From positions 1 through 64,000 of IMG/VR virus record IMGVR_UViG_3300042450_002433: a stretch of 64,000 nucleotides of DNA; one strand, 5' to 3'. Every line of letters starts with the position of its first letter. Positions within the stretch are counted from its first letter, which is position 1. Origin of the DNA: a virus. The translations under genes were made by a program, and so were the position numbers. Below the pieces are notes generated by a model. It was given only the letters and a program-made list of their open reading frames with translations, had not been told where the DNA came from and did no database searches. Of the stretch, positions 2,764 to 63,603 are shown piece by piece.

Positions 2764-3894
2764 ATGAAAAACTTCAACGAAAATTGGGACGGCAGACTTC
2801 CCCGCAAGAACAACAACACCAACGGCATCAATACTCTCTCCGAGGCATCTCAGCAAGTCATCGGTAAGTATCGCTTTACTCCCTTTATGGAGGACACGAA
2901 TAGTGAAGGTGTTGCAGGATGGACGATCAGCATTCAGAACAAGGGAGTGGTTGCATATATTGCAGAACCTAAGATTAAATCAGGCACCTCACCCTATCAG
3001 ATCTTTCGTACCAAAGGCTTATCCTTCAAGAATTTCTTTCCAGGGGAACTGAAGATGTCGGCATACCCTGGCAAAGAGAACCGAGTTGTCAGCGAGAAGG
3101 AGATTCGTTTTGTTCCCCGTCAGTTGCTCAAGGCTGTTGCCATGTGGATGGACAAGTATGGCACCAAGGCATTGACAGAGATGCTGACACCCGCACAACC
3201 TATCATCGAGGCACATGACGATCTGACGGGGTATTACGATGGTGCGCGTGGTGGTGGCGGTGCAGGAAATGCAAAGTACTTGGATAAGGCAATTGCAGAT
3301 TTTGCAAAAGATATGAAGGCTCTTGCAGCAAAAGGCGATCCTCGTAAAGATCTCAAAGCATTCAAGGCATATATTCCAATCATTCACAAGATTGAGTATG
3401 GAATGGATGCAGGTGGCGGGTTGACATGGCCATATGAAACATCAACGGGCAAGACCAAGGCATCGTTCCTTAAGGGATTCTCTCCTGAACAGAAGAAGGC
3501 AGATAAGGCTCTCCGTAGCATCTCGACATGGTGGTCGCAGTCGGGTCTTCAAAGAATCACTCCAAGATCAGAGAAGATTTGGAATGACGGATGGAATAGT
3601 TATAGAAAGTATATGGGTGAACGGGTCACAGAGGAGACAGCCGCAGCGGACGGGGCGCAGTCCCTTGACGAAGTGCAGTTCATCACCCCGAAGGTGCCAT
3701 TGACGGGCGGCAGCAACACCAAAGAGAAGACTGATTACAAACTATATGTCGAACTCAAAGATGTTGTAAATGATGTAATCAAGAAATTGGAACAGGCAGA
3801 ATCAATGATTCGAAGTCCAAGTAAGAATTCCAATCTGAGCATCTTGCAGACAGTTACTCAGGCAAAGCAGAAACTCAAGATCGCGGTCAAGTAA
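2764..3894 (+). CDS. hypothetical late protein, probable internal head protein (multi-module)
   Basis: Late promoter; N-terminus MKNFNENWDG shared with the next gene; internal LxE/IxE linkers. Confidence 0.7.
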   Translation: MKNFNENWDGRLPRKNNNTNGINTLSEASQQVIGKYRFTPFMEDTNSEGVAGWTISIQNKGVVAYIAEPKIKSGTSPYQIFRTKGLSFKNFFPGELKMSAYPGKENRVVSEKEIRFVPRQLLKAVAMWMDKYGTKALTEMLTPAQPIIEAHDDLTGYYDGARGGGGAGNAKYLDKAIADFAKDMKALAAKGDPRKDLKAFKAYIPIIHKIEYGMDAGGGLTWPYETSTGKTKASFLKGFSPEQKKADKALRSISTWWSQSGLQRITPRSEKIWNDGWNSYRKYMGERVTEETAAADGAQSLDEVQFITPKVPLTGGSNTKEKTDYKLYVELKDVVNDVIKKLEQAESMIRSPSKNSNLSILQTVTQAKQKLKIAVK

Positions 3895-3904
3895 AAGGAA
3901 CTAT

Positions 3905-4468
3905 ATGAAACAGTTCAATAAGAATTGGGATGGTGTTCATCACAACCACATCGCCGAGGCAATGGCACAGTATGAGGCGAATAAGGCAATGACACATTAT
4001 GAGGCGAATAGTCGTTTCCCCATGAGTAATATTGGTAATGTTGGAAATCTAGGTAGAGTCAGCATGGGGAGTCCTATGGGAACTCCTGCTAAGGAGGATA
4101 CTTCTAATTCGGAAGCCAATGCAAAGACCTTTGTTGAGATTCTCTGTCAGCGAACAGGCAAGACGGGTATGGTCTTTCGTCTGATGACCGCAGGACATCC
4201 GATGCATTTCCTTCAGATGGAAACCATCCCCACAAAGAACGGTGAGACAGAGCAGTCTTGGTATGTGTTCTTTGAGATGAAGAACTTTAATGGTGGACTT
4301 GCAGATAAGACGATGGCAGGGCGAGGAACCTTTGTACGGCGCAATGATAGTGCAAATTGGACGGATATGATGTTCGCCGTTCAGAGTGTTTCTATGGCAC
4401 GAACAAAGTGGGATACTCTAAGGAAGTCCGCAGTATGGGACAAGACCATGGCTACGGGTAGGGTTTAA
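3905..4468 (+). CDS. hypothetical late protein
   Basis: SD AAGGA; N-terminus MKQFNKNWDG. Confidence 0.7.
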   Translation: MKQFNKNWDGVHHNHIAEAMAQYEANKAMTHYEANSRFPMSNIGNVGNLGRVSMGSPMGTPAKEDTSNSEANAKTFVEILCQRTGKTGMVFRLMTAGHPMHFLQMETIPTKNGETEQSWYVFFEMKNFNGGLADKTMAGRGTFVRRNDSANWTDMMFAVQSVSMARTKWDTLRKSAVWDKTMATGRV

Positions 4469-4492
4469 ATTAACTTTAAGGAAACAGGAAAC

Positions 4493-4972
4493 ATGACAGA
4501 CTCAAATGCATCTCGTATTCGTTCTTTGACAGAAGCCGCTAACAGCATCACCAACCCTATCACGGAAGCACGAACAAGTCCCAAAGAGCATGAATGGCTT
4601 TCGGACATGAAGGCTAAGGATGTTGCTGCCATTGGTAAACTGCTCAAGAGCAAGGACACAAAGGGACTAGAACAGTATCTTATCTCCAACTATTTGATGC
4701 ATCGTGATGGTACGGCATATGGCAAGAACCTTGACCGAAGTGCAATCGAAATCATCAAGCGTTCATTTGCTGATGTTCATGAAGAGGTTCAAGTCGAAGA
4801 AGTCGAGACTGTTGAGGAAGCAGTTGCCATCGACAAGAACATGAACATCAAGGCAATGGTTGCTGTCTTGAAGGATATTTCCGATGCCCTCATGGGTAAG
4901 AATGTTGTGACCCAACGCGAACGCTTGAAGGCTATTACTCAGGTATTGGCATCGAAGCGCGGTTTCATGTAA
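4493..4972 (+). CDS. hypothetical late protein
   Basis: SD AGGA; Glu-rich linker EEVQVEEVETVEEA. Confidence 0.7.
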   Translation: MTDSNASRIRSLTEAANSITNPITEARTSPKEHEWLSDMKAKDVAAIGKLLKSKDTKGLEQYLISNYLMHRDGTAYGKNLDRSAIEIIKRSFADVHEEVQVEEVETVEEAVAIDKNMNIKAMVAVLKDISDALMGKNVVTQRERLKAITQVLASKRGFM

Positions 4973-4992
4973 TTTAACCTTTAAGGAAACAA

Positions 4993-5433
4993 GTGAAATC
5001 CTTTTCTTGCTATAGCATGGCAGAAGCCATCGGTAACACTCTCTACCTTGTTCGTGGTCTTCCAGGTTCAGGGAAGTCTACCTATGCAAAGACACTTGTA
5101 CCAACAGGGGCGCACTTTGAAGCCGATCAGTATTTCATGAAGGGTCAGAAGTATAACTTCGATCCCACAAAGTTAAAGGATGCCCATGCCGAGTGCCTTG
5201 CTCGTACACGCAAGGCAATGAATAGTGGCAATCATAAGATTGTTGCCGTATCCAATACCTTCACGATGAAGTGGGAGATGCAACCATACATCGACCTTGC
5301 AAAGTCTCTTGGATGGACGGTGCATGTTGTTCGCACAACGGGCAAATACCAATCCATTCATGGTGTTCCTCAGGATGCCATTGACCGAATGCAAAGTCGA
5401 TTCGAACCCTTTGCAGGAGAAGTGATCAAGTGA
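4993..5433 (+). CDS. P-loop kinase/ATPase (AAA_33, polynucleotide-kinase-like) with CTS-like leader
   Basis: LYLVRGLPGSGKST, EADQYF, VSNTF and HGVP motifs. Confidence 0.85.
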   Translation: MKSFSCYSMAEAIGNTLYLVRGLPGSGKSTYAKTLVPTGAHFEADQYFMKGQKYNFDPTKLKDAHAECLARTRKAMNSGNHKIVAVSNTFTMKWEMQPYIDLAKSLGWTVHVVRTTGKYQSIHGVPQDAIDRMQSRFEPFAGEVIK

Positions 5434-5726
5434 AATCATTCGCTGACTATCTCTCCGAAGGCTCACATAGTTTCAAGGACTTCAAGGATCCATGGGCTAT
5501 CATGTCTCCCGAGGATCGCAAGGAAGCGAACCGCCTGACCATACTGATCTTGAAGGTGATGCCGAGTTCACCGAGGCAGAAGGAACTCCAAGCCAAGCGG
5601 GATGTGATATTCAAGAAGTATAAGATCGGCGAGGATTGGACAAAGGAATACAAGGGTTCCATTAACTGTAACAATCCAAAGGGTTTCTCTCAACGAGCGC
5701 ATTGTCAAGGAAAGAAGAAGCGATGA
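5430..5726 (+). CDS. small late protein with CTS-like leader and C-terminal INCxNPKGFSQxAHC motif
   Basis: MKSFADYLSE; overlapping start/stop with both neighbours. Confidence 0.7.
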   Translation: MKSFADYLSEGSHSFKDFKDPWAIMSPEDRKEANRLTILILKVMPSSPRQKELQAKRDVIFKKYKIGEDWTKEYKGSINCNNPKGFSQRAHCQGKKKR

Positions 5727-6211
5727 AGACCTATGCCGAACTAATAGACTTGCTCGAACTCTTCAACGAGCCATTCACCTTTGCGAAAGAATGGTCTGAT
5801 GGATATTCAATCGGGTATGAGTACAAAGGAGCAAAGGGTGGATTACTTGAAGTGACCTTTGGACTACAACCTGATACGGCGATTGTTAATTTTACTGTTA
5901 ATGATAGTATTGCTATTCGCGGTGAAGGAGATGCACCGCGAGTGTTTGCTTCGGTGATGGATGCATTCAAAAGATTCCTTGCGAAAAGGCAACCCAAGTA
6001 TTTGGTATTCAGCGCAAACAAGGCAGACTATGATTTGAAGAATCAGACACGCCGATCCACATCAAGACCGCGTGTTTATGGTGCGATGATCAAGCGACTT
6101 GCCCCACAGTTTGGATATAAGTTAAAGCAAGAAAAAGATGTTACGGATCGTGATGCCTTTGGCGGTAACTATGACTCTAGCACCTTTATCCTGCAAAAAA
6201 CAAAGAGATAA
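5723..6211 (+). CDS. hypothetical protein, paralog family A (CTS-like leader)
   Basis: ATG 5723 overlaps the upstream stop; MKTYAELIDLLELF; shares motifs with 9050 and 12043. Confidence 0.75.
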   Translation: MKTYAELIDLLELFNEPFTFAKEWSDGYSIGYEYKGAKGGLLEVTFGLQPDTAIVNFTVNDSIAIRGEGDAPRVFASVMDAFKRFLAKRQPKYLVFSANKADYDLKNQTRRSTSRPRVYGAMIKRLAPQFGYKLKQEKDVTDRDAFGGNYDSSTFILQKTKR

Positions 6212-6220: not shown

Positions 6221-7126
6221 GTGAAGACCTACTTCCAACTCATTGAGGCAATTAAGCCCAAGCCTAGCAAGCCATTTACATTTCGTCTGCTCCCTGCCAA
6301 GCCGTGGACGATCTGTGATGTGTTGGCAAGCCCTACCCCCAAAGGTCTCATTACGATCTGCAAAGAAGGGGCTGAGGTATTCTATGACTCCGACCTGAAG
6401 ATGTTTGATGTCAATAAACTTCTAACCAATTATCCTGCATGGGTGAGACAGTTAGAAAAATACGGCTGGGCAATGGGTAATTTTTTCGATCTACAGGGAT
6501 CGCAGAAGATGTCTTATGTTTCCAAGATATTAGAAATGGCTGCGTGTAAAAATCGCGCCGAATGGACATACTGGACAGGTGGAAAAGTATATCGTGGACT
6601 TGGAAAAACCCCTGCCGATCTCAAGAACTATTCCTATACGGGGGAACACCTGAAAGCAGTTGGGGAAGATTGGCTCATCGGATCCACCACCTATAAGAGT
6701 AAATATGATATTCAGTCTTGGACTCCGAATATTAAAATTGGTGCTCGATTCGCAACATCTGCCGAAGACAACATCAACAAGAAAAACAGTATGTCCGCAA
6801 TGATAGAACTCGATATAGATCGATCAGATACATTTCTATCTCCACAGGTTATTCGTAAACTTTCAGAGTATCCTGGAGAAGACGAGGTATTGCGAGTAAA
6901 GAACAATGCTGTTCCTGTTGTGATTTATATCAGGCTAAAGGATATATTGTTCCATCTACAAACCAAGACTCCAAAGAATATACAGGGCAACGAGGATACC
7001 CATCTCCCATATATGATTAAACTTTTCGAAGGACTGATGGGATCTGCGAATGCCAAGAAGTTACTAGCCAATCCAACCGTATTTGCACAGATCAAAAAAC
7101 TAGTTAAATTTGATGTCAAACCCTAA
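6221..7126 (+). CDS. putative ADP-ribosyltransferase (R-S-E class) with CTS-like leader
   Basis: VYRG ... QSWT ... GEDEVL spacing matches the ART R-S-ExE triad; late promoter. Confidence 0.65.
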   Translation: MKTYFQLIEAIKPKPSKPFTFRLLPAKPWTICDVLASPTPKGLITICKEGAEVFYDSDLKMFDVNKLLTNYPAWVRQLEKYGWAMGNFFDLQGSQKMSYVSKILEMAACKNRAEWTYWTGGKVYRGLGKTPADLKNYSYTGEHLKAVGEDWLIGSTTYKSKYDIQSWTPNIKIGARFATSAEDNINKKNSMSAMIELDIDRSDTFLSPQVIRKLSEYPGEDEVLRVKNNAVPVVIYIRLKDILFHLQTKTPKNIQGNEDTHLPYMIKLFEGLMGSANAKKLLANPTVFAQIKKLVKFDVKP

Positions 7127-7677
7127 TGAAGACCTACTTCCAACTCCTCCTTAGTATTAAAGAAGCCACCGCTGCACCTGTAGAGGTATCAGTTGGCAAG
7201 CGTAGTTGGGAGCAGTTGAGACAGGAGTTGCAACAGTTACTTGGTAGCGGAAGAAAACCAACCTATGCCGACATTGGTCACATCCCAGTTGAGAAGAAGC
7301 ACTACTCCATCTATGGAATCAAGAAGAAACTTCCTGTTCCATTTGAACTGTGGTGGACGGACGATGGCTCGACCATCAACAGAAAAAAGTCGGCAGGAGG
7401 TGGTGATGAGTTCCTAATGCACGGTGTTGCAGGAAAGACAGGACTGAATGGTTTTCTCAAGACCGTTGGTGGAGATCAGTCTCGCTACAAGGGACGCATC
7501 GATCATGAGCGCAAGGCAGTAACTGTGGTATTTGGCGGGGCATATGATTACAACAGCATTCTGCGTATGCGGGCATTGGAGAAGGGTATCCCCAATATCA
7601 TTCGCAAAATGAAACAGTTGTATCCCAACTATGCTCTGCACTATTGGGATACTGATGGGAAGGTGCAGTCACTATGA
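7126..7677 (+). CDS. hypothetical protein with CTS-like leader
   Basis: MKTYFQLLLSIKEA; coupled to the upstream gene. Confidence 0.7.
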   Translation: MKTYFQLLLSIKEATAAPVEVSVGKRSWEQLRQELQQLLGSGRKPTYADIGHIPVEKKHYSIYGIKKKLPVPFELWWTDDGSTINRKKSAGGGDEFLMHGVAGKTGLNGFLKTVGGDQSRYKGRIDHERKAVTVVFGGAYDYNSILRMRALEKGIPNIIRKMKQLYPNYALHYWDTDGKVQSL

Positions 7678-9047
7678 AAACCTTCACAGAACTTATGGGA
7701 GAGATCCTACTCGAACGAGAACTCGACCGCCCAATGCGTGAGGCGGCGGGTCGTTCTTTTGATAAGTTCAAAAAGAACATCATGAGTGTTCTTCGTAAAT
7801 CGGTGAATGACTGTGCGAAAAATTTTCACAATACAGTTGATTTTAGACCATGGGGTGGAATAGGACGAGCATCAGCCACATCGTATCTGGTCAGTAGCAT
7901 ACAGAACAATCAACCATCATCTTATAAACTACGCCTGTACTTTGCGGATAAGTATGCAATCCTTACTTACTCTGTAGTGGACGAATCGCAGATTGTTCTT
8001 CCTTCGAATATTTCGATGAGTGCCTATAAACAAAATGTGCACAAGAGTAATATGCCATTATTGCTTAAGATTGAGTTGCTTGGTTCCTTTGGTGATTTTA
8101 AGGGATCGTATTTTTCAGGAAAGACATCTCAGGGAAACCCACTTGTTCAACTCGCGGGTATGAGTTCACTTCGACATGATGGAGGACATCCCTTTGAGGA
8201 AGCACTCATCGAATTCATCGATGGCAAGAAGGCAGGAAAATCAGCACAGGCACTCGTCCGTCCACTAAACAAGTGGCTTGATAAATTTGAGACAGAACTA
8301 TCTCATCTTCGTGATACCTATGTGCATGAGTTCATCCATCTGTTCGATGACTTTCGATATAAGTCAAAGACTAGTCATCCTGGAAACATCATGCGCGGAA
8401 TTAAATCTTCTCATGATAAGACAGACCTTTACAAGAAGGACTATTACATTAGTGATGCAGAGTGGAATGCATTCTTCCAAGGTGCTGCATCCTCAGTTGA
8501 GAATGCCATTGCTTCTTTCCTGATTGCAGCAACGAATGAACAGGCTGCGATAAAGGCATATAGATTCAACAAGAACTTTAACACGATGACTAATGGAGCG
8601 AAGTGCAAGGAAGTGGGCGACATCGTAATTCAAGATCTTTGGCGCAAGTTTGATGACAACCTTACAGAGCCATGGATATGGGAACACCTAAAGAATATGG
8701 GTATCGACAAACTTGGGCAAGGCAACATCCCTACCTTCTGCATGGCATTCGTATCATGGAAAGCATATAGCACAAGCAAATACTTCCTTGAAGATCCTGC
8801 GAAGAGGAAGAAGTTCTTGCTTCGCATCATGTCATTCACTCAAGACATTCGCAACATCATTGAGGAATACAGAGTTCGCATGAGTCAGGGAAAGATTCCT
8901 ACTGTTCAAGAGTTCAATCGCTCTAAGGCACAGTTTAGCCGCAAAGGGGATCCAACAAAAACGCATGACATATATTCACATCTCTATAGTGGACTGATGA
9001 TTGGCAAGAAGCCGTTTGATCCTACAGCAGTAGTAAAGGAATGGTAA
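7674..9047 (+). CDS. putative zincin metallopeptidase-domain protein with CTS-like leader
   Basis: YVHEFIHLFD (HExxH) with downstream YY..DAEWNAF (third ligand E). Confidence 0.6.
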   Translation: MKTFTELMGEILLERELDRPMREAAGRSFDKFKKNIMSVLRKSVNDCAKNFHNTVDFRPWGGIGRASATSYLVSSIQNNQPSSYKLRLYFADKYAILTYSVVDESQIVLPSNISMSAYKQNVHKSNMPLLLKIELLGSFGDFKGSYFSGKTSQGNPLVQLAGMSSLRHDGGHPFEEALIEFIDGKKAGKSAQALVRPLNKWLDKFETELSHLRDTYVHEFIHLFDDFRYKSKTSHPGNIMRGIKSSHDKTDLYKKDYYISDAEWNAFFQGAASSVENAIASFLIAATNEQAAIKAYRFNKNFNTMTNGAKCKEVGDIVIQDLWRKFDDNLTEPWIWEHLKNMGIDKLGQGNIPTFCMAFVSWKAYSTSKYFLEDPAKRKKFLLRIMSFTQDIRNIIEEYRVRMSQGKIPTVQEFNRSKAQFSRKGDPTKTHDIYSHLYSGLMIGKKPFDPTAVVKEW

Positions 9048-9049: not shown

Positions 9050-9535
9050 ATGAAATCATTCCGTCAACATCTTCACGAAATATTCAACTCCACTCCTATC
9101 CCATTAACAATGGTGAAGACACCGCTACACATGAACAGCGGTGGTGTAGTGTGGTACGGAAACTGGTCGGTGAATGGAAAGCCTCATTTGTTTGAAGCAT
9201 ATGGTCGCCCTATCAGATCCGATGATGAGGTTACGGGTTGGGTGTTTGGATTTACTGTTGATGACGAGGCTTCTGCACCACCTAATCAGGAAGCAGCGAT
9301 GAAATCTGAAACAGGACGAATATTCGCAACAGCCCTTGAGGCTCTTCGGCAACTTGTCAAAGAATATAGTCCAAAGATGATTCGTTTTACGGCAGCAAAA
9401 GAAAGAAAGAAAAATGATTCCCGTGTTCGCCTGTATAATTCTATGGTAAAGCGATTTGCAGGACAGCACGGATATAGATTAAAGGATCAGTCGGAGGATC
9501 AATTCGTCCAACTATATGTACTGGTAAAGCAATGA
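9050..9535 (+). CDS. hypothetical protein, paralog family A (CTS-like leader)
   Basis: MKSFRQHLHEIF; RIFAT...P..I.FTA.K...SRVRLY..MVKR. Confidence 0.75.
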   Translation: MKSFRQHLHEIFNSTPIPLTMVKTPLHMNSGGVVWYGNWSVNGKPHLFEAYGRPIRSDDEVTGWVFGFTVDDEASAPPNQEAAMKSETGRIFATALEALRQLVKEYSPKMIRFTAAKERKKNDSRVRLYNSMVKRFAGQHGYRLKDQSEDQFVQLYVLVKQ

Positions 9536-9813
9536 AATCATTCAAAGAATATCTCGAAGAAAAGCGTGACTGCAAAGCAGAATACTTAAAGATGTATGGC
9601 GGCAGTAATCCTACAGCCAAACAGAAACTCGCAAGAAAGAAGAAGACATCGCGCAAGCGTATTCTTCGTGAACTTGGGCGCGAAGGCAAAAGCAATGATG
9701 GCAAGGAGATAGACCACAAAGATGGTAATGCCTTGAACAATCATCCAAGTAATATTCGAGTCATTAGTCGAGCAGAGAACCGCTCTCGAAACAACAATAA
9801 GTGGCGTAAGTGA
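9532..9813 (+). CDS. small HNH endonuclease-like protein with CTS-like leader
   Basis: EIDHKDGNALNNHPSNIRVISRAENRSRN HNH signature. Confidence 0.8.
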   Translation: MKSFKEYLEEKRDCKAEYLKMYGGSNPTAKQKLARKKKTSRKRILRELGREGKSNDGKEIDHKDGNALNNHPSNIRVISRAENRSRNNNKWRK

Positions 9814-12042: not shown

Positions 12043-12804
12043 ATGAAATCTTTCAGTTCACATATCACCGAACTCTTTGATACCTCACACCCGTGGAGCG
12101 CAATGCAGACGGGCGGTGATCATGAGATCTATCGATTTGCTTTCGCAAAGATGCGAGGTGGAAAGATGATTCCATGTCCCATTGGTTCTGGTGGTCTTGA
12201 CATCGAAAAGTTTTATAGGGAAAACGGATTAGAGATCACAGGAAGAGATTCCAACAACATACCGCTTGTGAACGGAAAGCCAACACCTCTTCATGGAGTG
12301 GTATACGAAGTCGGACTTCATAGTCTTGCACACAACCCTACCCTCTATACCGACATGATGGAAAAATCAAACCTTGAGAAACCCGATATGTCGAAGGTGT
12401 GGGAACTGTACTTTCAACGAATGGATTCATTTGTAAAATGGAGTACGAATGCGCTTCCACATCGTTCGGGTTCACGATGGTATTGGTCTTATGACAATAC
12501 CGTAGGTGGTGGCGATGAAGATCTGAACATCATGAGCGGAGGAGAAGCAGCAAAGGTGTTTGGTACAGTTCTTGATATCACCAAGGCATTCGCGGCGAAA
12601 CACAATCCCAAGGGCATTCTTATCGGAACCAAAAGTACGGCAAAAGATGTACGGGGTCGGATATATTCGGGCATGGCAACTCGAAATGCAGGACAAGTCA
12701 TTCAAATTCCATACCCTCCACGCGATGGAATGAAGCAAGGAAACATGATTTGGTTCGACAAAATAAAGCAATTCAATCCGCTTGCAAATCAAGCAAAGGT
12801 GTGA
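12043..12804 (+). CDS. hypothetical protein, paralog family A (CTS-like leader)
   Basis: MKSFSSHITELF; KVFGTVLD..KAFAAKHNPKGI...RGRIY.GM. Confidence 0.7.
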   Translation: MKSFSSHITELFDTSHPWSAMQTGGDHEIYRFAFAKMRGGKMIPCPIGSGGLDIEKFYRENGLEITGRDSNNIPLVNGKPTPLHGVVYEVGLHSLAHNPTLYTDMMEKSNLEKPDMSKVWELYFQRMDSFVKWSTNALPHRSGSRWYWSYDNTVGGGDEDLNIMSGGEAAKVFGTVLDITKAFAAKHNPKGILIGTKSTAKDVRGRIYSGMATRNAGQVIQIPYPPRDGMKQGNMIWFDKIKQFNPLANQAKV

Positions 12805-18375: not shown

Positions 18376-18828
18376 ATGTATCATTATCAACGCCAAATTA
18401 TTGCTGAAGCCGCAAAGTACCAAAAAGACCCAACTCCAAAGGAAGATACTCCTATGAAGGATCCTGAGGGGGCTATGGCAATAACACAACTTCGAAGCAT
18501 TATCGAAAAGGCAAATGATATACTTCCTACCCTTAAGGCAGAGTCACAGTTAGAGGCATGGGTGCAAAGTAAGATATCTTTAGCAGACGATTATATTACT
18601 ACCGTAAGAGATCATATCAAGCAGAATGCTGATGTGGTGGACGAGTCGGCTCATGTGTCGGAGCAGATCATCAAGCCAACCCGTATGGAGGTGCAGAAGC
18701 ACTTCGATGCACAGACAGGTTCACCGCGAGATCGGGTGCTGTCTACCGAACGGGCACTAATGGTTTCGGAACTCATGGTTGGCGATGATGGGGTAGTGAG
18801 CACTTATAAATTCAATGATTCTCCTTGA
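18376..18828 (+). CDS. conserved T4-like late protein
   Basis: EGAMAITQL...QLEAWVQSKISLADDYI motif; leader QRQIIAEAAK shared with 19012. Confidence 0.7.
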   Translation: MYHYQRQIIAEAAKYQKDPTPKEDTPMKDPEGAMAITQLRSIIEKANDILPTLKAESQLEAWVQSKISLADDYITTVRDHIKQNADVVDESAHVSEQIIKPTRMEVQKHFDAQTGSPRDRVLSTERALMVSELMVGDDGVVSTYKFNDSP

Positions 18829-21880: not shown

Positions 21881-22171
21881 ATGAAGAGTTTTCTCCAACA
21901 TGTCATGGAAAATACAACGGCAAACATGGTCTACTTTGGAACAAACGGTGCAGGGTTTGCCGTTGACACTGTATCGTCTAACTTCGATGTTGATCAGTGG
22001 GGAGAAAAACATGACAACATGAAACCATGGGAAGTTCGAAATGCAGAAGATGCTACCACCCGAAGAACTCATCTTTTACGATGGATGAAAGCCTCAAGCA
22101 AATTCCAAGCACGAGCAGTCAATGACAGCAGCGTACCACTAACTCCAGATTGGCAGTCAAGAAAACGATGA
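21881..22171 (+). CDS. small late protein with CTS-like leader
   Basis: MKSFLQHVME; late promoter at 21869. Confidence 0.7.
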   Translation: MKSFLQHVMENTTANMVYFGTNGAGFAVDTVSSNFDVDQWGEKHDNMKPWEVRNAEDATTRRTHLLRWMKASSKFQARAVNDSSVPLTPDWQSRKR

Positions 22172-26031: not shown

Positions 26032-26105
26032 GTCCTTGTAACTCAGTTGGATAGAGTAACAGATTTCTAATCTGTAGGTCGGTGGTTCGAGTCCACCCAA
26101 GGACG
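26032..26105 (+). tRNA. tRNA-Arg(TCT)
   Basis: Cloverleaf; ACAGA-tt-TCT-aa-TCTGT; GGTTCGAGTCC. Confidence 0.95.
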
Positions 26106-26110
26106 CTTTC

Positions 26111-26183
26111 GCTCTTGTAGCGCAGTTGGTAGCGCAGTTGACTTTTAATCAATTGGTCGTGGGTTCGAGTCCCACCGAGAGCA
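26111..26183 (+). tRNA. tRNA-Lys(TTT)
   Basis: GTTGA-ct-TTT-aa-TCAAT; GGTTCGAGTCC. Confidence 0.95.
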
Positions 26184-26215
26184 TTCGATACTGTAGGAGA
26201 CTAAATATGGATGAC

Positions 26216-26743: not shown

Positions 26744-26749
26744 TATAAT

Positions 26750-26822: not shown

Positions 26823-26826
26823 CTGA

Positions 26827-27458: not shown

Positions 27459-27466
27459 ATAAGGAC

Positions 27467-27832: not shown

Positions 27833-27884
27833 TCTTGACAAATCGGGAGAACATGATACAATCATCAATGTAGTAAATTACTTC

Positions 27885-28317: not shown

Positions 28318-28319
28318 TT

Positions 28320-55935: not shown

Positions 55936-57372
55936 ATGACAGATAAGATCGAACTCATTATCCTGCGAAGCCTGTTGCACCGTGCAGATTTCACCCGTAG
56001 AGTGCAACCCTTCCTGCGAGAAGAGTACTTTCATGACACCTGTGAGAAGAGATTGTTCAAGACAGTCTCTGAGTTTATCGGCAAGTATAACATTGCCCCT
56101 ACCCGCGAAGCACTGAATATCATCCTCAATCAGCAGGATGGGCTGTCACAGGGAGAATTTGACGAGTGTGTTAAACTCGTGGATTCTCTCGAAAAGACTA
56201 TCGATGAACCTGATGAGGCATGGCTCATCGATCAGACCGAGAAGTTCTGTAAGGACAAGGCAGTCTACAATGCACTCATGGAGTCTATTGAACTTCTTGA
56301 TGAGAAGAAAGCCAATGGAAGATCAAAGAATGCCATTCCCGAAATCCTAACATCGGCACTGAGCGTTTCTTTTGATGAACATATCGGACACGATTTCATT
56401 GATGATGCCGAGCAGCGTTATGAGTTCTATCATCGAGTAGAACAGAAGACTCCTTTCGATCTCGACTTCTTCAATCGAATCACGGCAGGAGGTGTTCCCG
56501 ACAAGACTCTCAATGTGATCCTCGCGGGCACAGGAGTGGGCAAGAGCCTGTTCATGTGTCATCATGCTGCCAACTGCCTAACACAGAGCAAGAATGTCCT
56601 ATACATCACCTGCGAGATGGCAGAGGAAAGAATCGCAGAGCGAATCGATGCCAATCTTATGGATATTTCAATGGATGAACTAAAGAAGTTGCCCATCGAT
56701 ATCTATGCCAAGCGTCTGTCCAAGGTGACTATGGGAATCACGGGGAAACTCCTGATCAAGGAATATCCCACTGCCGCAGCGAATGCCAACCATTTTCGGC
56801 ATCTGCTTGATGAACTGCGCCTGAAGAAGAACTTTAAGCCCGACATCATCTTCATTGACTATCTCAATATCTGTGCTTCGACTCGGTTTAAGCCAGGAGC
56901 AAATGTCAATTCGTATACCTATATCAAGGCAATTGCAGAGGAACTTCGTGGTCTTGCAGTTGAGATGAAGGTGCCAATCTTTACTGCAACACAGACGAAC
57001 CGTTCAGGCTTTGGCAATACGGATGTCGAATTGACCGATACCTCGGAATCATTCGGGCTACCTGCCACTGCGGACTTTATGTTTGCTCTGATTGCAACCG
57101 AACAATTGGATGCAGTCGGTCAGGTCATGGTCAAGCAATTGAAGAACCGTTACAATGATGTTGCTGCCAATCGTAAGTTTGTGATTGGGATAGATCGTTC
57201 GAAGATGAAGTTGTTTGATGTTGATGAATCACAGCAACAGTTGATTCAGGGGAATCATTCTGCTGATGCAGAGGATGAGAACACAGACAATGGCTTTGAC
57301 TCTCCAAACAAGGGTGGCGGGGGGTATGGCTACAAGAAGGGAAAGAAGCCCTCTATGGGTGATTGGTCTTAA
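55936..57372 (+). CDS. 41: replicative DNA helicase
   Basis: AGTGVGKS, ITCEMAEERIAERIDAN, IDYLNIC, IAEELRG, SESFGLPATAD. Confidence 0.97.
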   Translation: MTDKIELIILRSLLHRADFTRRVQPFLREEYFHDTCEKRLFKTVSEFIGKYNIAPTREALNIILNQQDGLSQGEFDECVKLVDSLEKTIDEPDEAWLIDQTEKFCKDKAVYNALMESIELLDEKKANGRSKNAIPEILTSALSVSFDEHIGHDFIDDAEQRYEFYHRVEQKTPFDLDFFNRITAGGVPDKTLNVILAGTGVGKSLFMCHHAANCLTQSKNVLYITCEMAEERIAERIDANLMDISMDELKKLPIDIYAKRLSKVTMGITGKLLIKEYPTAAANANHFRHLLDELRLKKNFKPDIIFIDYLNICASTRFKPGANVNSYTYIKAIAEELRGLAVEMKVPIFTATQTNRSGFGNTDVELTDTSESFGLPATADFMFALIATEQLDAVGQVMVKQLKNRYNDVAANRKFVIGIDRSKMKLFDVDESQQQLIQGNHSADAEDENTDNGFDSPNKGGGGYGYKKGKKPSMGDWS

Positions 57373-57377
57373 TTCAC

Positions 57378-57452
57378 GGGCGGGTGCCTGATAGTGGTAA
57401 AAGGTCGCACCTTATAAGTGCGCTCATGTGGGTTCGACTCCCATCCCGCCCA
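57378..57452 (+). tRNA. tRNA-Ile(TAT)
   Basis: GGGCGGG/CCCGCCC acceptor; CGCAC-ct-TAT-aa-GTGCG; GGTTCGACTCC. Confidence 0.9.
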
Positions 57453-57489
57453 TTACAAATATGCCTAAATAACTTCGCACGGAGCAAAT

Positions 57490-58689
57490 ATGCTGTCATT
57501 CAAACAAGCAAACAGAGTTCTTTCCGAAGAAGTAGTTCGAAATAAGCATCTAGACCATATAGAAGATCTGATGCTTCTTGAGGGTGAAAAAGGCTTAAAG
57601 TTGGCTATTGCATTCCTCAAAGATATTACAGAAAGCCTGAAAACAGGCTCGACTTCTTTAGGACTCTCCACCAAATGGGATGGGAAACCTGCTATTGTGT
57701 GTGGGATTAATCCCGAAAACAATAAGTTTTTTGTTGCTACCAAGGGAGCATTTAGCAAAACTGTCTCTGCATATCACACCGAAGCAGAAATACGGAAAGG
57801 TGTGTCGATTTCCGATCTTGCCGCAAAATTGATCGAGTGCTTAAAGTATCTGCCAGGACTTGGCATCAAGGGAGTATTGCAGGGCGACTTGATGTTTACG
57901 ATGGATTCCAAAAAATCACAGACGATTGATGGAAAAGAATATATTACTTTTGCTCCCAATACGATCATGTATGCAATTGAAAAGGACAGTGCCATTGGGA
58001 AATCGGTTTCCTCTGCAAAACTTGGAATTGCTTTTCATACCGTCTATAGTGGAAAAACGATGCAGGAGTTATCTGCTGTCTCCTTCAACTTTGATGCTAG
58101 TACCCTGAAAAAGAATGCAAATGTGTGGTTCACTGACCCCAACATATATGACATCACGGCTGCACTTCTCAAGCCTGATGAATATGGCAAACTTATGGGC
58201 ATGATCAAAGACTGTGAAGGAAAATCAAAAAAGGTATCGCCGTTCCTGAAGGTTCTTCTTTCCAATGCACAGTTAGTTGAATACATCCTTCCATATATAA
58301 ATGCCACCATTAATGGCGGTCTTTCACAATTTTCTGCCCGTGGTCTTAAGTTGAATTTGGAAACCAAGTTAAACAAGGACATTGAAAAACTAAAGACAGA
58401 AAAAGGCAAGCAGGGCAAAAGAGATATACTGAACAAGTTGCTTGCCTTTGTTGATGCATACGAATCACAGTTCAATTCTATGTTTGAACTACATAATCTT
58501 ATCGCCAAAGCAAAAGAAATTTTGCTCGGTAAGTTCTATATGCTGTCTAGTTTCGGGCATTTCTTCGTGGATGACAACGGGATTTCTCCAACAGATCCTG
58601 AGGGTATTGTGGTTTCTCGTTCAGGAAGAGTCACTAAATTGGTAAATCGACTACGATTTAGTAGACAAAACAGGAAGGTAAACTCGTGA
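57490..58689 (+). CDS. RNA-ligase-like nucleotidyltransferase (DUF6267-like) with CTS-like leader
   Basis: HLDHIED, TKWDG (KxDG), QGD, PEGIVV, KLVNR. Confidence 0.7.
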   Translation: MLSFKQANRVLSEEVVRNKHLDHIEDLMLLEGEKGLKLAIAFLKDITESLKTGSTSLGLSTKWDGKPAIVCGINPENNKFFVATKGAFSKTVSAYHTEAEIRKGVSISDLAAKLIECLKYLPGLGIKGVLQGDLMFTMDSKKSQTIDGKEYITFAPNTIMYAIEKDSAIGKSVSSAKLGIAFHTVYSGKTMQELSAVSFNFDASTLKKNANVWFTDPNIYDITAALLKPDEYGKLMGMIKDCEGKSKKVSPFLKVLLSNAQLVEYILPYINATINGGLSQFSARGLKLNLETKLNKDIEKLKTEKGKQGKRDILNKLLAFVDAYESQFNSMFELHNLIAKAKEILLGKFYMLSSFGHFFVDDNGISPTDPEGIVVSRSGRVTKLVNRLRFSRQNRKVNS

Positions 58690-61600
58690 TAGAGCGTTTC
58701 TTACATCGAATTGACGAAGCAAAAAAAGACACAGCAGTTATTGCTTTCGGCAGAATGAACCCCCCGACCATCGGTCACGGTGTCTTGGTAGACAAGATTG
58801 TTTCCGAAGCGCAGAAGCACAATGCAGATCATTTCATATTTGCATCTGAAACACAAGACTCAAAGAAGAACCCCCTATCACATAAGCAAAAGGTTGCATA
58901 CCTTAAGAAGTTTTTTCCTAAGGGCAACTTTCCTGTAGGAATGGCAAAGGATCCGTATACTGCCGTTCTATATGTGTGCTCATTGGGATATAAGAACATC
59001 ATCATGGTTGCGGGAAGTGACCAAGTCGAAAACTTTAAAAACATTGCCAAGTATAAGGGCAAGGTTGCAGATCGTGATCCTAAGAAGCGTGTATATTCAT
59101 TTGAAAAATTCGAAGTAGTTCAGGCGGGTGAGGCACGGGATGATGACTCTCAAGGTGTTGAGGGAATGTCTGCTTCCAAGATGAGATCTGCTGCTTTCGA
59201 TGGAGACTTTAAAAAGTTTGCCACGGGCGTTCCAGGTAAGGATAATGCCACCAAGAAGAAGATGTACAGCGATGTTCGTAAGGGATTGAGTCTTGGGGAG
59301 TCATATATCTCAGAGGCTGTAAACCCAAGTGACAAGGTAACAATCCTTGCACTAACTTCTTCGGAAAAAGATCTATCCGATACAATCGAAAAGATGCAGG
59401 AAATCTGCAAGAAGCGCAAAATTGAATTCTATGCAGTGAAGACTTCTAAAGCACAAGTAGAAATTTCAAATGTTACTTCGAAGAAAATCACTATCAAGAA
59501 TTATGACGGTGAAGGTAAAGATATCACTGTTATCCCAAGCGACACAGTAGCAGTTGTTCGTGGTGGTGTGATGAATAGTGATATCGGTGTTGCTATCATG
59601 ACCATCTTGCAGAACAATGGAGTGTTCATGATCAATGAGCGTGGAGGAATGGAACTCTGTGCAAACAAACTAGAAACTGCAATTGCTCTCAAGAAACACA
59701 ATCTCCCACACCCACGCACAACATTTGTTGCAGACGAAAGCAATATTGAAACTGCCGTTAAGGAAATTGGTGGTAAGTTCCCCGTCATCGTAAAGACTCT
59801 TACGGGGGCTGAAGGCATCGGCGTGTCCAAGATTGAAAGCATGGAAAGCCTGAAGTCTGTTCTACAAACTCTATGGAAATACAATGCCGAAATCATTATG
59901 CAGGAATTCCTGCCTGATTTCAAGAATGATGTTCGCAGCATCTGCCTGAATGGTAAAATTTTTGCCTGTGCAAAGCGGGATAAGGCTCCTAAGGATTTCC
60001 GCACAAACATTGCCCGAGGTTCAAAGGGTGGTGCATTCCAACTCTCTGATGAAGAAATCAAGTTGGTGGAGGAAGCCGCTCGGGTTAGCAAGTGCTACTA
60101 TGTCGGAGTTGATCATGTAATCAATGATGGTAAGCCATACATCATTGAAATGAATGCAAGCCCAGGCAGTGGTAATATCTACTACCGCTATTATGAAGAC
60201 GGCAAGGGCAAGAACAATGTCGAGGGCAAAGAGTTGGTCGAAGATTTTGTTGAATATATTCTCAACAAATCCAATTGGAAACTGTTCTCCAACCTCACTG
60301 TTCGTGAAACAGTTAAGATTGATGGAGTCGAATATGAAGCCAAGGTCGATACAGGCAACAGTGGCTACAATATGATTCATGGCGAAGACATCAAAGACAA
60401 TGGAAACCACACGGTTACCTTCAAACTGTCGAATGGTAAAAAGATTACCAAGAAAATCGTCAGTCGAATTATTGTCAAGAGTGGTATTGGGGAGAAGAAG
60501 CGACTTGTTATCTTCATGGACATTGAATTCCATGGAAAGAAATACCCAAACATCAAATTCTCAATTGGTGATCGCAACCATATGTCCACCAAAGTCCTTC
60601 TCGGTCTGCAATTCCTGAGCAAGACAGGAATGTTGGTTGATCCTGCGGAGGCAATATACCCACAGAATCAAACGAAAAAAGAAGAACATGTCAATCTTAA
60701 TAGCAATACACTTTATGAAAAACTCACAAAAAACGGACAGTTAAAAGAGTTAAACAATCGATACGAACAGGACGATGCATTCGAACGCCTTGCGAAGATC
60801 GATCAGAGCGATACAACAAACAACAATAAGATTCGCCTTTCTATTGCATATGAAGAACGCTGCCTGACCCGCAATATGCAGGATGGGGCATATCTAGCAC
60901 GAACCTATATTGAATTCCTCAAAGAGATTCGCAATTCTGAGTTGGGTTCGAATCAGCCTAAGACTGATATCAACGAAGACTTCGAATTCTTTTTACTTGA
61001 AGTTAGCCCACCCAAAGGTGCTGCACGAAGTTTCTCAAAGGATGAAAAAACCAAAGCATCATTCCGAAAACAATATGGTAAGCGGTGGAAGGAAGTGTTC
61101 TATGCGACTGCATGGAAGATGCATGGAGAAGATGTAGAGCCGTCTGAGACATGGCTTGATGAGGCTAAGAAAATCAACAATGTGTTGAAATGGACTTCTA
61201 TGAGTAAGAGAGGCCCGTTACTCATCGGCACCGATAAGATTGTAAAAACCTACAAGCATGACACCCCTGGCGAGCGGAAAGAAATTGAAGAAGATAAGCC
61301 TTGTTGGGTAGGGTTTAAACAATTGGGAATGAAGATGAAGAATGGGAAAAAAGTTCCTAATTGTGTGTCCGTAAAGGAAGATACTTCTGAAGAGGAGATG
61401 TCGGATCTCTATAAGGAATGGCAAAAACTTGTAAATATGTCGGGCAAGGAGATTGATACATTCCTTGATTCTGATGACGGAACTGAGGCAGGACTGTCCC
61501 GCAAGGAGGCAGGTAAGGCAGGTGCAGACGGTGGTAAAATTAGTACAGGTCGAGATTCTGCCCGTGCAATCATTCGAATGCTAGATACCCCCATGGAAAA

Positions 61601-61757
61601 ATGGTCTGATAATGATTGGAAATGGGCAGGGAAGCAAGTCAATTTCATCAATCGAATGAAAGGCGCAAAAGGGCCTTTGAGAGACGAAGACAAAAAACCT
61701 ACTCGTAAATTGTTAGCACTTAAGGTATGGGGACACAACCCCGAAAAGGGATCATAA
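58686..61757 (+). CDS. multidomain protein: cytidylyltransferase-like, RimK ATP-grasp, RimB-like aspartyl protease, DUF3140-like
   Basis: FGRMNPPTIGH/GMSASKMR; NKL...P.IVK...G.GV...QEFL..DVR...FRTNIARG...GVD...IEMNASPG; AKVDTG...R..M...VLLG; VNMS...GRDSAR...WGHNP. Confidence 0.85.
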   Translation: MIERFLHRIDEAKKDTAVIAFGRMNPPTIGHGVLVDKIVSEAQKHNADHFIFASETQDSKKNPLSHKQKVAYLKKFFPKGNFPVGMAKDPYTAVLYVCSLGYKNIIMVAGSDQVENFKNIAKYKGKVADRDPKKRVYSFEKFEVVQAGEARDDDSQGVEGMSASKMRSAAFDGDFKKFATGVPGKDNATKKKMYSDVRKGLSLGESYISEAVNPSDKVTILALTSSEKDLSDTIEKMQEICKKRKIEFYAVKTSKAQVEISNVTSKKITIKNYDGEGKDITVIPSDTVAVVRGGVMNSDIGVAIMTILQNNGVFMINERGGMELCANKLETAIALKKHNLPHPRTTFVADESNIETAVKEIGGKFPVIVKTLTGAEGIGVSKIESMESLKSVLQTLWKYNAEIIMQEFLPDFKNDVRSICLNGKIFACAKRDKAPKDFRTNIARGSKGGAFQLSDEEIKLVEEAARVSKCYYVGVDHVINDGKPYIIEMNASPGSGNIYYRYYEDGKGKNNVEGKELVEDFVEYILNKSNWKLFSNLTVRETVKIDGVEYEAKVDTGNSGYNMIHGEDIKDNGNHTVTFKLSNGKKITKKIVSRIIVKSGIGEKKRLVIFMDIEFHGKKYPNIKFSIGDRNHMSTKVLLGLQFLSKTGMLVDPAEAIYPQNQTKKEEHVNLNSNTLYEKLTKNGQLKELNNRYEQDDAFERLAKIDQSDTTNNNKIRLSIAYEERCLTRNMQDGAYLARTYIEFLKEIRNSELGSNQPKTDINEDFEFFLLEVSPPKGAARSFSKDEKTKASFRKQYGKRWKEVFYATAWKMHGEDVEPSETWLDEAKKINNVLKWTSMSKRGPLLIGTDKIVKTYKHDTPGERKEIEEDKPCWVGFKQLGMKMKNGKKVPNCVSVKEDTSEEEMSDLYKEWQKLVNMSGKEIDTFLDSDDGTEAGLSRKEAGKAGADGGKISTGRDSARAIIRMLDTPMEKWSDNDWKWAGKQVNFINRMKGAKGPLRDEDKKPTRKLLALKVWGHNPEKGS

Positions 61758-61830
61758 TGCAACATATCAAAGAAAGCATATGAAGCGGATGATCGTGATC
61801 TATAAATAACAAGTATCCACAGGAGAGACC

Positions 61831-62130
61831 ATGTTTAACAATCCATTCAATTCCAAAATCGTTGCCGATATTACAAAATTCTTAGAAGAGCATCGTAACG
61901 ATGTTGAAATCAATCCTTGTCTCAATGACAAGGCAAAAGAGGCAGCAATTAAAGTTGTCGAACAAACGGTTCTTGAAGAACAACGAAATGTTCTTGTTAA
62001 GCACTTCAATGAAGCAATTCGCGAGTGCAACTGCCGTGGAACGACTGAGGAAGCCAACAATTTTGCCAAGGCTGTACAGACTCATATTGACACAAATGGC
62101 AAAAAAACTATCGATCCCGCAAAGAACTAA
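61831..62130 (+). CDS. small late protein (possible prohead core-like)
   Basis: TATAAATA and AGGAG SD. Confidence 0.65.
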   Translation: MFNNPFNSKIVADITKFLEEHRNDVEINPCLNDKAKEAAIKVVEQTVLEEQRNVLVKHFNEAIRECNCRGTTEEANNFAKAVQTHIDTNGKKTIDPAKN

Positions 62131-62157
62131 ATAGAAACACAGAGGAGATATACCGAA

Positions 62158-63099
62158 ATGGCAACTTGGAAAAATAACGACAGAGAAGAATCAAAGCCAA
62201 CATGGCTGAATAAGATTCAGAAGAGACTTTGCACCCGTACCGTCCGTGGATGGGAAATGCCTCTTATGGGTTCGTTTTTTGCATATGGTGCGACAGGAGT
62301 ATCTTCTTCCTCGTCAACAATCACTGCATATACCAACGGTACTGTAATTACTGAACTTTTGGTAGCAATGCCTGTTGATGATAAAACATCGGCAATTTTT
62401 ACTCCAAGAACAGGCCCAACAGGGTTTTCATGGGGTCAAGGCGCGACATCGGGAAGCGATCTTCCAAACTATGCACCTTACTTTTCATGCCCATTCAACG
62501 GTGATAGTGCAACAGGTGGAGCCAATCTAGGTGATGCAGGAGTTTCCCATTCATTCTTCAACTATATTGCTACCATGGCAGGTGGAGCATTTGGTGGTGC
62601 AGGACTGACTCCAGGTCGTGCGGGTGGAATTGGATTCCAATATGGTGTTAACAAGTATGGTGTATCTTCGCTTGGTGGTCTGACAGGAGTCACTGCATAT
62701 ATCAAGGTTGCTGTCAATGATGCAAACTTCACAAATACCCTTACAATTGGGTTGTCGGGCACAAACGCAGGATGTCAGTTGTATACAGGTGCAACAGATA
62801 TTAACGATACCACCAAAGTCCCAACCGCCGTTGTAACAACATTCTTCGGAGCAACAAGCACCGATGATGATCTTGTTCCTTATCGATATGACAATATTGC
62901 AGTTCTTGTGGTTGCAGGATCTACTGCATCGGGCATTAAGACCATCAATCTCAAGGCACAGGATTCTCTCGGAGGTGCAGTTGGTGCAAGTGCATTCACC
63001 TCCTTTAGAGTTTACTTCGACCAAAATCCTGGTCTTACCACGAGTGCAGTAAATGCGATGAGCAGTTATTACTATCTCAACTATAACAAGAGTAACTAA
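62158..63099 (+). CDS. Gly/Thr-rich late (virion structural?) protein
   Basis: Late promoter; W...KP.WL...GW...ELLVA N-terminus; GxTG repeats. Confidence 0.65.
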   Translation: MATWKNNDREESKPTWLNKIQKRLCTRTVRGWEMPLMGSFFAYGATGVSSSSSTITAYTNGTVITELLVAMPVDDKTSAIFTPRTGPTGFSWGQGATSGSDLPNYAPYFSCPFNGDSATGGANLGDAGVSHSFFNYIATMAGGAFGGAGLTPGRAGGIGFQYGVNKYGVSSLGGLTGVTAYIKVAVNDANFTNTLTIGLSGTNAGCQLYTGATDINDTTKVPTAVVTTFFGATSTDDDLVPYRYDNIAVLVVAGSTASGIKTINLKAQDSLGGAVGASAFTSFRVYFDQNPGLTTSAVNAMSSYYYLNYNKSN

Positions 63100-63111
63100 T
63101 AGGAACTCAAC

Positions 63112-63603
63112 ATGAAGTCTTATAAGCAACTGAGAAAAACAATTAATGAAAATGCACCCCACCAAAGTGCATATGATGCATCTGGAAGTGTTGGGCGTGT
63201 TGGCCCACAGGATGGTGACAATTCTCTCGATGGCAATTATAATCTGTCTTCATTGAGTCCTGTTGCAATCACTCGCATCAATACCTACTTGGGTGCACTT
63301 TCTGCAAAGCCATACATCGACCCTGTGTCTGCCTTGAAACAGGCACAGGGTAGACTTCAAATGATCGGTCTTGATTTCACAATGACCAAAGACTGTGCTA
63401 TGAGATTGTCAACACAGACCGAAGAAATTATTCCACTCGTTCGTTTTGGTGGAACTCTTCGTGCTGATGGATCTGTATATGGATATACAAAGGATGATGG
63501 AATTACTCATCTCCTTGGTCATGGTCTTGCTCTTCGTGTCGAAACACATAAACTTCCAAGTGGTCTTACCCAAGTACATGCAATGATTGTTCCTAACGGC
63601 TAA
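63112..63603 (+). CDS. late protein with CTS-like leader
   Basis: MKSYKQLRKTINE. Confidence 0.7.
   Translation: MKSYKQLRKTINENAPHQSAYDASGSVGRVGPQDGDNSLDGNYNLSSLSPVAITRINTYLGALSAKPYIDPVSALKQAQGRLQMIGLDFTMTKDCAMRLSTQTEEIIPLVRFGGTLRADGSVYGYTKDDGITHLLGHGLALRVETHKLPSGLTQVHAMIVPNG

Follow-up and report, generated by a model that had tools for sequence, protein, structure and literature searches.

The first 64 kb of the linear IMG/VR virus contig IMGVR_UViG_3300042450_002433 (147,569 bases; CheckV completeness, 65%), a stretch of 64,000 nucleotides that we refer to as the window, encodes 17 proteins that begin with the same kind of leader of about 10 residues. This leader is probably the capsid targeting sequence (CTS) of the lineage, of the type known from T4, a load-and-cleave address that sits here on an unusually large and mostly enzymatic set of cargo proteins. 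All 17 N termini proposed in the initial annotation are found in the DNA, start codon and peptide alike, and each gene is named below by its first nucleotide; all of them lie on the plus strand. The proteins had also been described as unrelated, and an all-versus-all BLASTP comparison of the mature parts, with the first 16 residues removed, connected only 5723, 9050, and 12043, which have one domain in common. Together the 17 proteins total 4,857 amino acids, about 10% of the contig.

The pattern M-K-[S/T]-[F/Y/L]-x-x-[L/Y/H], usually followed by an aliphatic residue, any residue, and Glu, is present in 15 of the 17 proteins, and the two looser leaders (57490 and 58686) are supported by orthology. 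In the 15 strict leaders, position 4 is Phe or Tyr in 14 and Leu in 1, position 7 is always Leu, Tyr, or His (often His), position 8 is Leu, Ile, Val, or Met in 12, and Glu is at position 10 in 9, the others having it at position 9, at positions 11 to 14, or later. Positions 4, 7, 8, and 10 are constrained and positions 5, 6, and 9 are not. Over all 17 proteins, 12 have an L/I-X-E ending at residues 9 to 13, 3 have Met or Val at P3, and 2 have the site only at residue 24 or 29. By composition, 0.24 strict starts would be expected among 165 crude genes, compared to the 15 observed. In the internal-methionine control, K-[S/T]-[F/Y/L] followed only 2 of 978 internal Met residues, and none of the ∼700 internal ATG windows scanned with fuller rules gave a match. 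Contig-wide (147.6 kb), strict leaders are confined to 4993 to 26216 and to 63112. Four leader genes (4993, 5430, 6221, and 58686) start with GTG, and orthologs or family members show that the leaders behind these codons are translated. As had been stated, none of the replication genes (gp45, gp44, gp62, RegA, gp43, UvsX, and gp41) carries the leader. The M-K-S-L start of the ribonucleotide reductase (95556), a core metabolic gene whose family match begins at residue 7, was set aside as coincidental, and 30789 and 115186 were rejected as leader genes, the match being in the head only.

The CTS of the T4 internal proteins was reportedly described by Mullaney and Black in 1996. It is present on IPI, IPII, IPIII, and the Alt propeptide and is removed by the prohead protease gp21 (PMC9026906, PMC3012670). 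The first ten residues of IPIII are sufficient for encapsidation; residues 4 and 7 are the main determinants of targeting and residues 8 and 10 those of processing, and gp21 cuts after the Glu in L/I-X-E (PMC9026906 sections 2.5-2.6). The T-even internal proteins themselves are a diverse set with only the CTS in common (PMC3012670, PMC9026906, PMC4122927). As a control, we searched whole genomes with rules that drew on nothing but what is described for T4. Four genes were returned for T4, namely, ipI, ipII, ipIII, and the hypothetical gp61.1, whereas the contig gave 15 to 18, in agreement with the earlier claim that its set exceeds that of T4. KVP40, Aeh1, and the cyanophage P-HM1 gave about 1 or 2 genes by the full-motif rules and 2 to 5 by any rule, near the internal-ATG control. 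The gp61.1 gene of T4 (NC_000866 18966-19130, locus L093) encodes 54 residues that start with a CTS-like decapeptide and is the sole T4 match of the generic rule outside the annotated internal proteins.

The leader genes also tend to lie behind candidate late-expression signals. The motif [C/A]TAAATA occurs 63 times on the coding strand and 24 times on the other and is probably the predicted gp55 late promoter, because it precedes tail fiber and baseplate genes. It heads units at 2764, 6221, 21881, 23288, 26216, 57490, and 62158. The initial annotation placed nearly all leader genes in such late units and proposed comparing late with early genes; by a crude nearest-signal rule, the nearest upstream signal is late for 16 of the 17 leader genes and for 37 of 66 other genes (Fisher P = 0.004), which is consistent with the claim but a weak test of it. 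The stretches with the strongest sigma70-like promoters (15.4 to 18.9 kb and 24.3 to 25.9 kb) contain no leader gene. Two genes ahead of 13877, at 13600, there is also a strong promoter of this type. Taken as a whole, the timing evidence is consistent with late expression and not decisive. The late-type motif is often found 6 to 9 nt before the start codon (2753, 6209, 21870, 23274, 26202, 27456, 29967, and others), so late transcripts would have very short 5′ leaders or none.

The window also contains gp45, gp44/62, RegA, gp43, UvsX, and gp41, and the contig beyond it contains the gp55 late sigma factor, gp32, gp46, a UvsW-type helicase, a class I ribonucleotide reductase, the gp5 hub, and tail fibers; by this gene content the contig is a T4-like myovirus. 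Its gp43 DNA polymerase reaches at best 49% identity with those of cultured phages, the nearest being cyanomyoviruses, and a megablast search of two window stretches against cultured phages returned a single tRNA match and no DNA-level relative. On these comparisons the lineage is distant from the Tevenvirinae. A relative found via 23288, G001 (168 kb; 93% complete; 51% G+C), has orthologs of 12 of the 17 tagged proteins and carries about 17 tagged genes. Its head module is complete and of the T4 type, with the gp20 portal, gp21 (Peptidase_S77; E = 1e-33), an acidic gp22-like scaffold, and gp23. Two further T4-like genomes, the IMG/VR contig G003 and phage C48C1 (Kyanoviridae), have about 9 to 11 tagged genes each, and both encode gp21. 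The product of 57490 to 58689 is identical to a protein (P0001) recorded on 17 contigs, the longest of 160,247 bases, and a longer public assembly of this phage therefore probably exists. A homolog of the 6221 protein at 87% is recorded on a contig of 174 kb. Nine tRNA genes and a transfer-messenger RNA gene (27885 to 28237) are interspersed among the leader genes at 26032 to 28701, 31250 to 31325, and 57378 to 57452; ipI of T4 also adjoins a tRNA region.

Several points weigh against assigning the leader to capsid targeting. Packaging, cleavage, and injection are predicted here from the genes of the phage and its relatives, and a metabolic enzyme such as the nucleotidase of the NT5C family (26216) has no obvious need for injection. 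The leaders of 4993, 13877, 21881, and 23288 depart from L/I-X-E at position 10, and 57490 and 58686 occupy a position in the replication module where the cyanophage orthologs are untagged. With its 7 nt the late motif is short, in many cases it includes part of an upstream TAA stop codon or all of it, and it also precedes some replication genes, which makes the split between late and early genes soft. Finally, the contig was searched and has no gp21 (Peptidase_S77), gp22, or gp23. It ends before the neck and head module, however, and since the identical gp21 search was positive in T4, KVP40, Aeh1, P-HM1, and C48C1, the negative result reflects a fragment and not a missing gene. We infer the prohead protease of this phage from its relatives.

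Some of these points favor a different reading, that the leader, although a genuine protein signal, serves a different destination or purpose, directing its carriers to another part of the virion or to an assembly factory, acting as an inhibitory propeptide that holds toxic enzymes inactive, or marking proteins for timed degradation; neither head packaging nor injection would then be involved. The head module is missing from the contig, encapsidation is read from the genes, and an NT5C nucleotidase, a cytidylyltransferase, and a kinase usually act in the infected cell. We nevertheless regard this reading as unlikely. The leader matches the T4 CTS at each position, including the protease site (PMC9026906), and the rule derived from T4 picks out the three internal proteins in that phage. 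The leader has no hydrophobic core for export, and a propeptide cleaved by gp21 would in any case act only inside proheads.

Comparison with G001 indicates what is being conserved in the leader. In 11 ortholog pairs, leader identity is 51% and identity of the mature part is 65%, and the pattern is retained. The mature part of the 4993 kinase is 76% identical to its G001 counterpart; the two leaders have 3 of 10 letters in common and keep F4, an aromatic residue at position 7, and M-x-E. The G001 ortholog of 12043 has a different head with the same F4, Y7, and L-A-E and identical residues after it, and that of 21881 agrees at 5 of 10 leader letters and retains the pattern. The leader is likewise conserved in the orthologs of 22168 (70% identical) and 63112 (77% identical), and the ortholog of 5430 starts with ATG and has the same head. 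In the ortholog of 58686 the same conserved start is preceded by a canonical M-K-N-F...L-T-E leader, which supports the inclusion of 58686 in the initial annotation. An N terminus similar to that of 7126 is present on the G001 open reading frame (ORF) at 165493, and a tblastn search of G001 with the whole 7126 protein found no homolog. The codons of the leader vary, with Ser encoded by TCN and by AGT and with both Lys, both Phe, and both Tyr codons in use, the replacements are conservative, and the DNA upstream is not common among leader genes. Selection acts on the leader protein, not on the DNA.

These observations bear on the possibility that the leader is a hitchhiking recombination cassette, that is, a module of promoter, ribosome site, and first codons that spreads in a hyperplastic region and encodes a functionless peptide. 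T4-like phages shuffle genes via conserved promoter-terminator motifs (PMC4122927), the leader genes cluster in variable regions, and the first 21 nt of 6221 (6221 to 6241) and 7126 (7126 to 7146) are identical in genes whose proteins are otherwise unrelated, which suggests a recent exchange or duplication of the leader. Against the cassette stand the lack of conservation upstream, the synonymous codon variation, the persistence of the amino acid pattern over 50 to 65% protein divergence, and the recurrence of the pattern in thousands of distant metagenomic homologs from three families, and we find it quite improbable. Even less credible is an RNA-level downstream element needed to start the translation of late mRNAs whose 5′ ends are very short: although the late motif lies just 6 to 9 nt before several start codons and the second codon is AAA or AAG, a common and known expression-enhancing feature, tail fiber and baseplate genes behind the same motif have no leader, many leader genes are operon internal with overlapping stop and start codons, and the use of TCN and AGT for Ser together with Phe/Tyr and Leu/Ile/Val exchanges keeps the chemistry and not the bases. 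All three explanations are made less likely than a CTS by the agreement with T4 at each position, by the codon variation, and by the recurrence of the pattern across families.

The recurrence can be followed in three of the tagged families. Among the 120 closest public homologs of the DUF6267 protein (57490), nearly all have the leader (85 of 112 by a strict head rule), with M-L-S-F or M-K-[S/T]-[F/Y] leaders almost throughout, and M1 and F4 are ≥90% conserved in 30 diverse homologs. The DUF6267 ortholog in P-HM1, in the same gp41-linked position, is leaderless and starts directly at the conserved domain. Between 66 and 78 of the 120 closest NT5C homologs are tagged; in 6 others the first residue is no more than 8 residues away from the catalytic DxD motif. 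In the ADP-ribosyltransferase (ART)-like family of 6221, an exhaustive homolog search gave 68 representatives, of which at least 40 start with the leader and several more have it behind miscalled starts. In the window itself, the Pfam domain models of 4993, 26216, 57490, and 58686 begin at residues 17 to 19, directly behind the leader. Since most of the DUF6267, NT5C, and ART homologs, about two thirds or more, are tagged and a few are untagged, the leader is, as judged from these alignments, a portable add-on, one that existing enzyme genes of many uncultivated T4-like phages have gained and lost. By the same comparison the tag is not peculiar to this phage but common among uncultivated T4-like phages. 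A literature search found no paper linking the CTS to cyanophage-like phages or mentioning DUF6267, and CTS leaders are not discussed in the T4-like comparative-genomics literature that was searched.

A broader proposition, which we put forward tentatively and hold at somewhat below even, is that the T4 CTS may be a general portable address label across uncultivated and marine T4-like phages, with whole enzyme families existing mainly as tagged, injected forms. If so, these families would include an undescribed ART family, NT5C nucleotidases, DUF6267 ligase-like proteins, and P-loop kinases, sequence alone would reveal the injected proteomes of thousands of phage genomes, and this phage would deliver ∼20 enzymes, about 10% of its genes, before phage gene expression.

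The ART-like protein (6221 to 7126; 301 amino acids; GTG start; L-I-E at residues 7 to 9; late motif at 6209) deserves separate description. In an alignment of 50 family members, R125-G126 is invariant, S166-W167 is invariant or ≥90% conserved, and E220-x-E222 is conserved; the order of the Arg, the Ser, and the ExE motif is that of R-S-E ARTs. The AlphaFold2 (AF2) model has a pLDDT of 88.4, with residues 1 to 22 disordered. ARTs top the VIA-align list for this model, with Vis (4xzj) at a moderate Z score of 6.7 (root mean square deviation of 3.8 Å over 146 residues), and further structural matches are a Listeria ART toxin, Tre1, Certhrax, C3, and an iota-like toxin. The top Foldseek matches are also ARTs (prob, 0.75 to 0.82; E, about 0.1), and the viral structural neighbors in BFVD include ART-bearing head proteins. 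The family has no sequence match in Pfam or the PDB, Pfam scans of 50 members gave nothing relevant, and a profile of the family misses Alt, ModA, and ModB of T4, its sole T4 match being ipII, via the leader. The ART label of the initial annotation is thus borne out by both the conserved residues and the fold, and 6221 appears to represent a new ART-like family of the R-S-E type.

The other enzyme assignments made in the initial annotation fared unevenly. The kinase (4993 to 5433; 146 amino acids; GTG start; M-A-E at residues 9 to 11) matches Pfam AAA_33 from residue 17 (E = 8e-12; 46 bits, with a cutoff of 27) and a PHROG family of ATPases/polynucleotide kinases. The HNH endonuclease (9532 to 9813; 93 amino acids; L-E-E at residues 8 to 10) matches HNH_3 at residues 52 to 84 (E = 3e-9; 36.7 bits; cutoff, 24.8), and the HAD nucleotidase, an NT5C/HAD 5′(3′)-deoxyribonucleotidase (26216 to 26743; 175 amino acids; I-K-E at residues 8 to 10), matches NT5C from residue 17 (E = 9e-7; 29.4 bits; cutoff, 24.8). 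The RimK fusion (58686 to 61757; 1,023 amino acids; GTG start; degenerate leader with I-D-E at residues 9 to 11) combines, from residue 19, a cytidylyltransferase (CTP_transf_like), a RimK ATP-grasp domain (E = 2e-29; 103 bits; cutoff, 21), Zn_protease, and DUF3140. No support was found for the labels “nuclease-like” and “Cys-His enzyme.”

Three labels stood in part. The ligase-like protein (57490 to 58689; 399 amino acids; variant leader M-L-S-F...L-S-E; late motif at 57466) matches Pfam DUF6267 from residue 18 (E = 5e-90; 303 bits; cutoff, 27). Its KxDG...EG...K motifs are conserved, with K62-W-D-G65, G132-D133, E371-G372, and K383 invariant in 30 diverse homologs, but neither its sequence nor a profile matched a solved ligase; the motifs are consistent with DUF6267 being a ligase-like nucleotidyltransferase. 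The putative metallopeptidase (7674 to 9047; 457 amino acids; M-G-E at residues 8 to 10 and L-L-E at residues 12 to 14) has HExxH at residue 218, which is kept in the G001 ortholog, but no Pfam, PHROG, or PDB match, and a related-locus search with it found nothing. For the zeta-like NTPase (23288 to 24349; 353 amino acids; head M-K-T-F; phrog_5268), the P-loop is present but the AAA_33 score of 17.9 is below the cutoff, and the AF2 model built on a 9-sequence alignment (pLDDT, 53.7) is too poor for a structure search. In this protein L-E-E at residues 27 to 29, immediately ahead of the conserved domain, is invariant in the family, and distant homologs have leader-like N termini of 12 to 14 amino acids ending in [L/I]-[D/E]-E. 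The sequence TATAAATA is found 9 nt upstream of 23288.

The remaining tagged proteins belong to unassigned families or families of no known function. These are 5430 (5430 to 5726; 98 amino acids; GTG start; L-S-E at residues 8 to 10), with no Pfam or PHROG match; 7126 (7126 to 7677; 183 amino acids; I-K-E at residues 11 to 13); 63112 (63112 to 63603; 163 amino acids; I-N-E at residues 11 to 13); the 96-amino-acid protein 21881 (21881 to 22171; V-M-E at residues 8 to 10), with a late motif 6 nt upstream; and 22168 (22168 to 23094; 308 amino acids; L-N-E at residues 8 to 10), which belongs to the function-unknown family phrog_23027. The paralogs 5723 (5723 to 6211; 162 amino acids; L-L-E at residues 10 to 12; phrog_6387/16075) and 9050 (9050 to 9535; 161 amino acids; L-H-E at residues 8 to 10; phrog_16075/6387) have a domain in common (E = 2e-11), which forms the C-terminal domain of 12043 (12043 to 12804; 253 amino acids; I-T-E at residues 8 to 10). 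The weakest strict leader is that of 13877 (13877 to 15337; 486 amino acids), with Leu at position 4, Glu at residues 13 and 14 without an aliphatic P3, and the next L-M-E at residues 22 to 24; its single known relative is 97% identical, and we class it as a probable leader. The sequences of 6221, 22168, 7674, 13877, 12043, and 57490 and the profiles A1, A2, and A3 gave no significant match when searched against solved structures.

The order gp41, DUF6267, and cytidylyltransferase (55936 to 61757) is common to cyanomyoviruses (P-HM1 locus L028), and PHROG holds DUF6267 and the cytidylyltransferase as a single fused profile (phrog_455). Here, the cytidylyltransferase gene of this arrangement has gained the RimK, protease, and DUF3140 domains.

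Outside the 17, two neighboring genes on the plus strand (2764 to 3894 and 3905 to 4468) form a possible extra cargo pair. Both start with a longer module, M-K-x-F-N-x-N-W-D-G ... [L/I]-x-E-A, with L-S-E-A at residues 25 to 28 and I-A-E-A at residues 16 to 19, respectively, and a late motif lies 6 nt before 2764. An N-W-D-G module ending in [L/I]-x-E is also found on the G001 ORF 166291 and on two homologs of the ART family (P0137 and P0142), on unrelated bodies, and may be an alternative address label. The adjacent genes 18376 to 18828 and 19012 to 20643 have a second leader-like N terminus ending in I-[I/L]-A-E followed by A-A-K, which resembles the F-I-A-E/A end of the T4 CTS, and a late-type motif at 18979 precedes 19012. 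These two may encode further head-core or cargo proteins.

If the leader works as the T4 CTS does, the tagged proteins would be made late, and the leader, through its aromatic residue at position 4 and the hydrophobic residue or His at position 7, would dock each cargo to the scaffolding core of the assembling prohead. A gp21-type prohead protease would then cut after the Glu of [L/I/V/M]-x-E, near residue 10 or, in a few proteins, deeper in the chain, and the mature proteins would stay with the packaged DNA and accompany it into a new host cell. No fewer than 17 proteins of the window would be delivered in this way, including the P-loop kinase, the HNH nuclease, the Alt-like ART, the deoxyribonucleotidase, the ligase-like DUF6267 protein, and the cytidylyltransferase-RimK fusion. 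The T4 determinants, the T4 control, the orthologs, the gp21 of the relative, and the add-on behavior all support the tag that the initial annotation had proposed, whereas packaging, cleavage, and injection we infer.

T4 provides three examples of such proteins: IPI*, which blocks GmrSD, IPIII, which counters a host barrier in ECOR17, and Alt, which modifies RNA polymerase. Injected proteins act before phage transcription and are therefore prime candidates for counter-defense or host takeover, although a counter-defense role for the set described here is speculation. Should the tag act as it does in T4, the proteins injected by T4-like phages could be predicted from a motif of ten residues, and the injected set of this phage would be several times larger than that of T4 and consist mostly of enzymes. 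This would open a sequence-only route to hundreds of candidate effectors and provide a natural catalog of the cargo tolerated by the T4 packaging platform, with the tagged set as a concrete list for virion proteomics.

The CTS mechanism and the existence of diverse proteins sharing it in T-even phages are already known, as are the large processed head cargoes of phiKZ-like phages. What is new is how large the set is, its cargo of enzymes with an undescribed ART family, the distant lineage, and the finding that whole enzyme families are mostly tagged in metagenomes. Like the T4 CTS, the leader has about 10 residues beginning with M-K-T-[Y/F], is aromatic at position 4 and hydrophobic at position 7, and has L/I-X-E at positions 8 to 10, and as in T4 it is carried by otherwise unrelated proteins in variable regions adjoining tRNA genes. 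It differs in that position 7 is often His and in that the system is known from its genes. Whereas T4 has three internal proteins and Alt, there are at least 17 tagged genes here on 65% of a genome, and whereas the T4 internal proteins are small and basic, the cargoes of recognizable family are mostly enzymes, one of them of 1,023 residues.

In 201phi2-1, 19 head proteins are cut after Glu by a gp21-related protease (PMC9026906 section 3.2; PMC5694885; PMC7411985). The phage described here would resemble phiKZ, 201phi2-1, and SPN3US in loading many different proteins into the head, including enzymes that enter the host. The phiKZ-type phages differ in their S/A-X-E cleavage motif, with no common 10-residue N-terminal address described, and in having an inner body, a virion RNA polymerase, and genomes of >200 kb that are not T4-like. 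As with Alt in T4, one cargo here is a predicted ADP-ribosyltransferase. The ART-bearing head-morphogenesis and minor capsid proteins of other phages found in BFVD are also examples of a capsid-carried ART for delivery, as proposed here, but those ARTs are covalently fused to a structural head protein, whereas 6221 would be a free protein with a cleavable leader.

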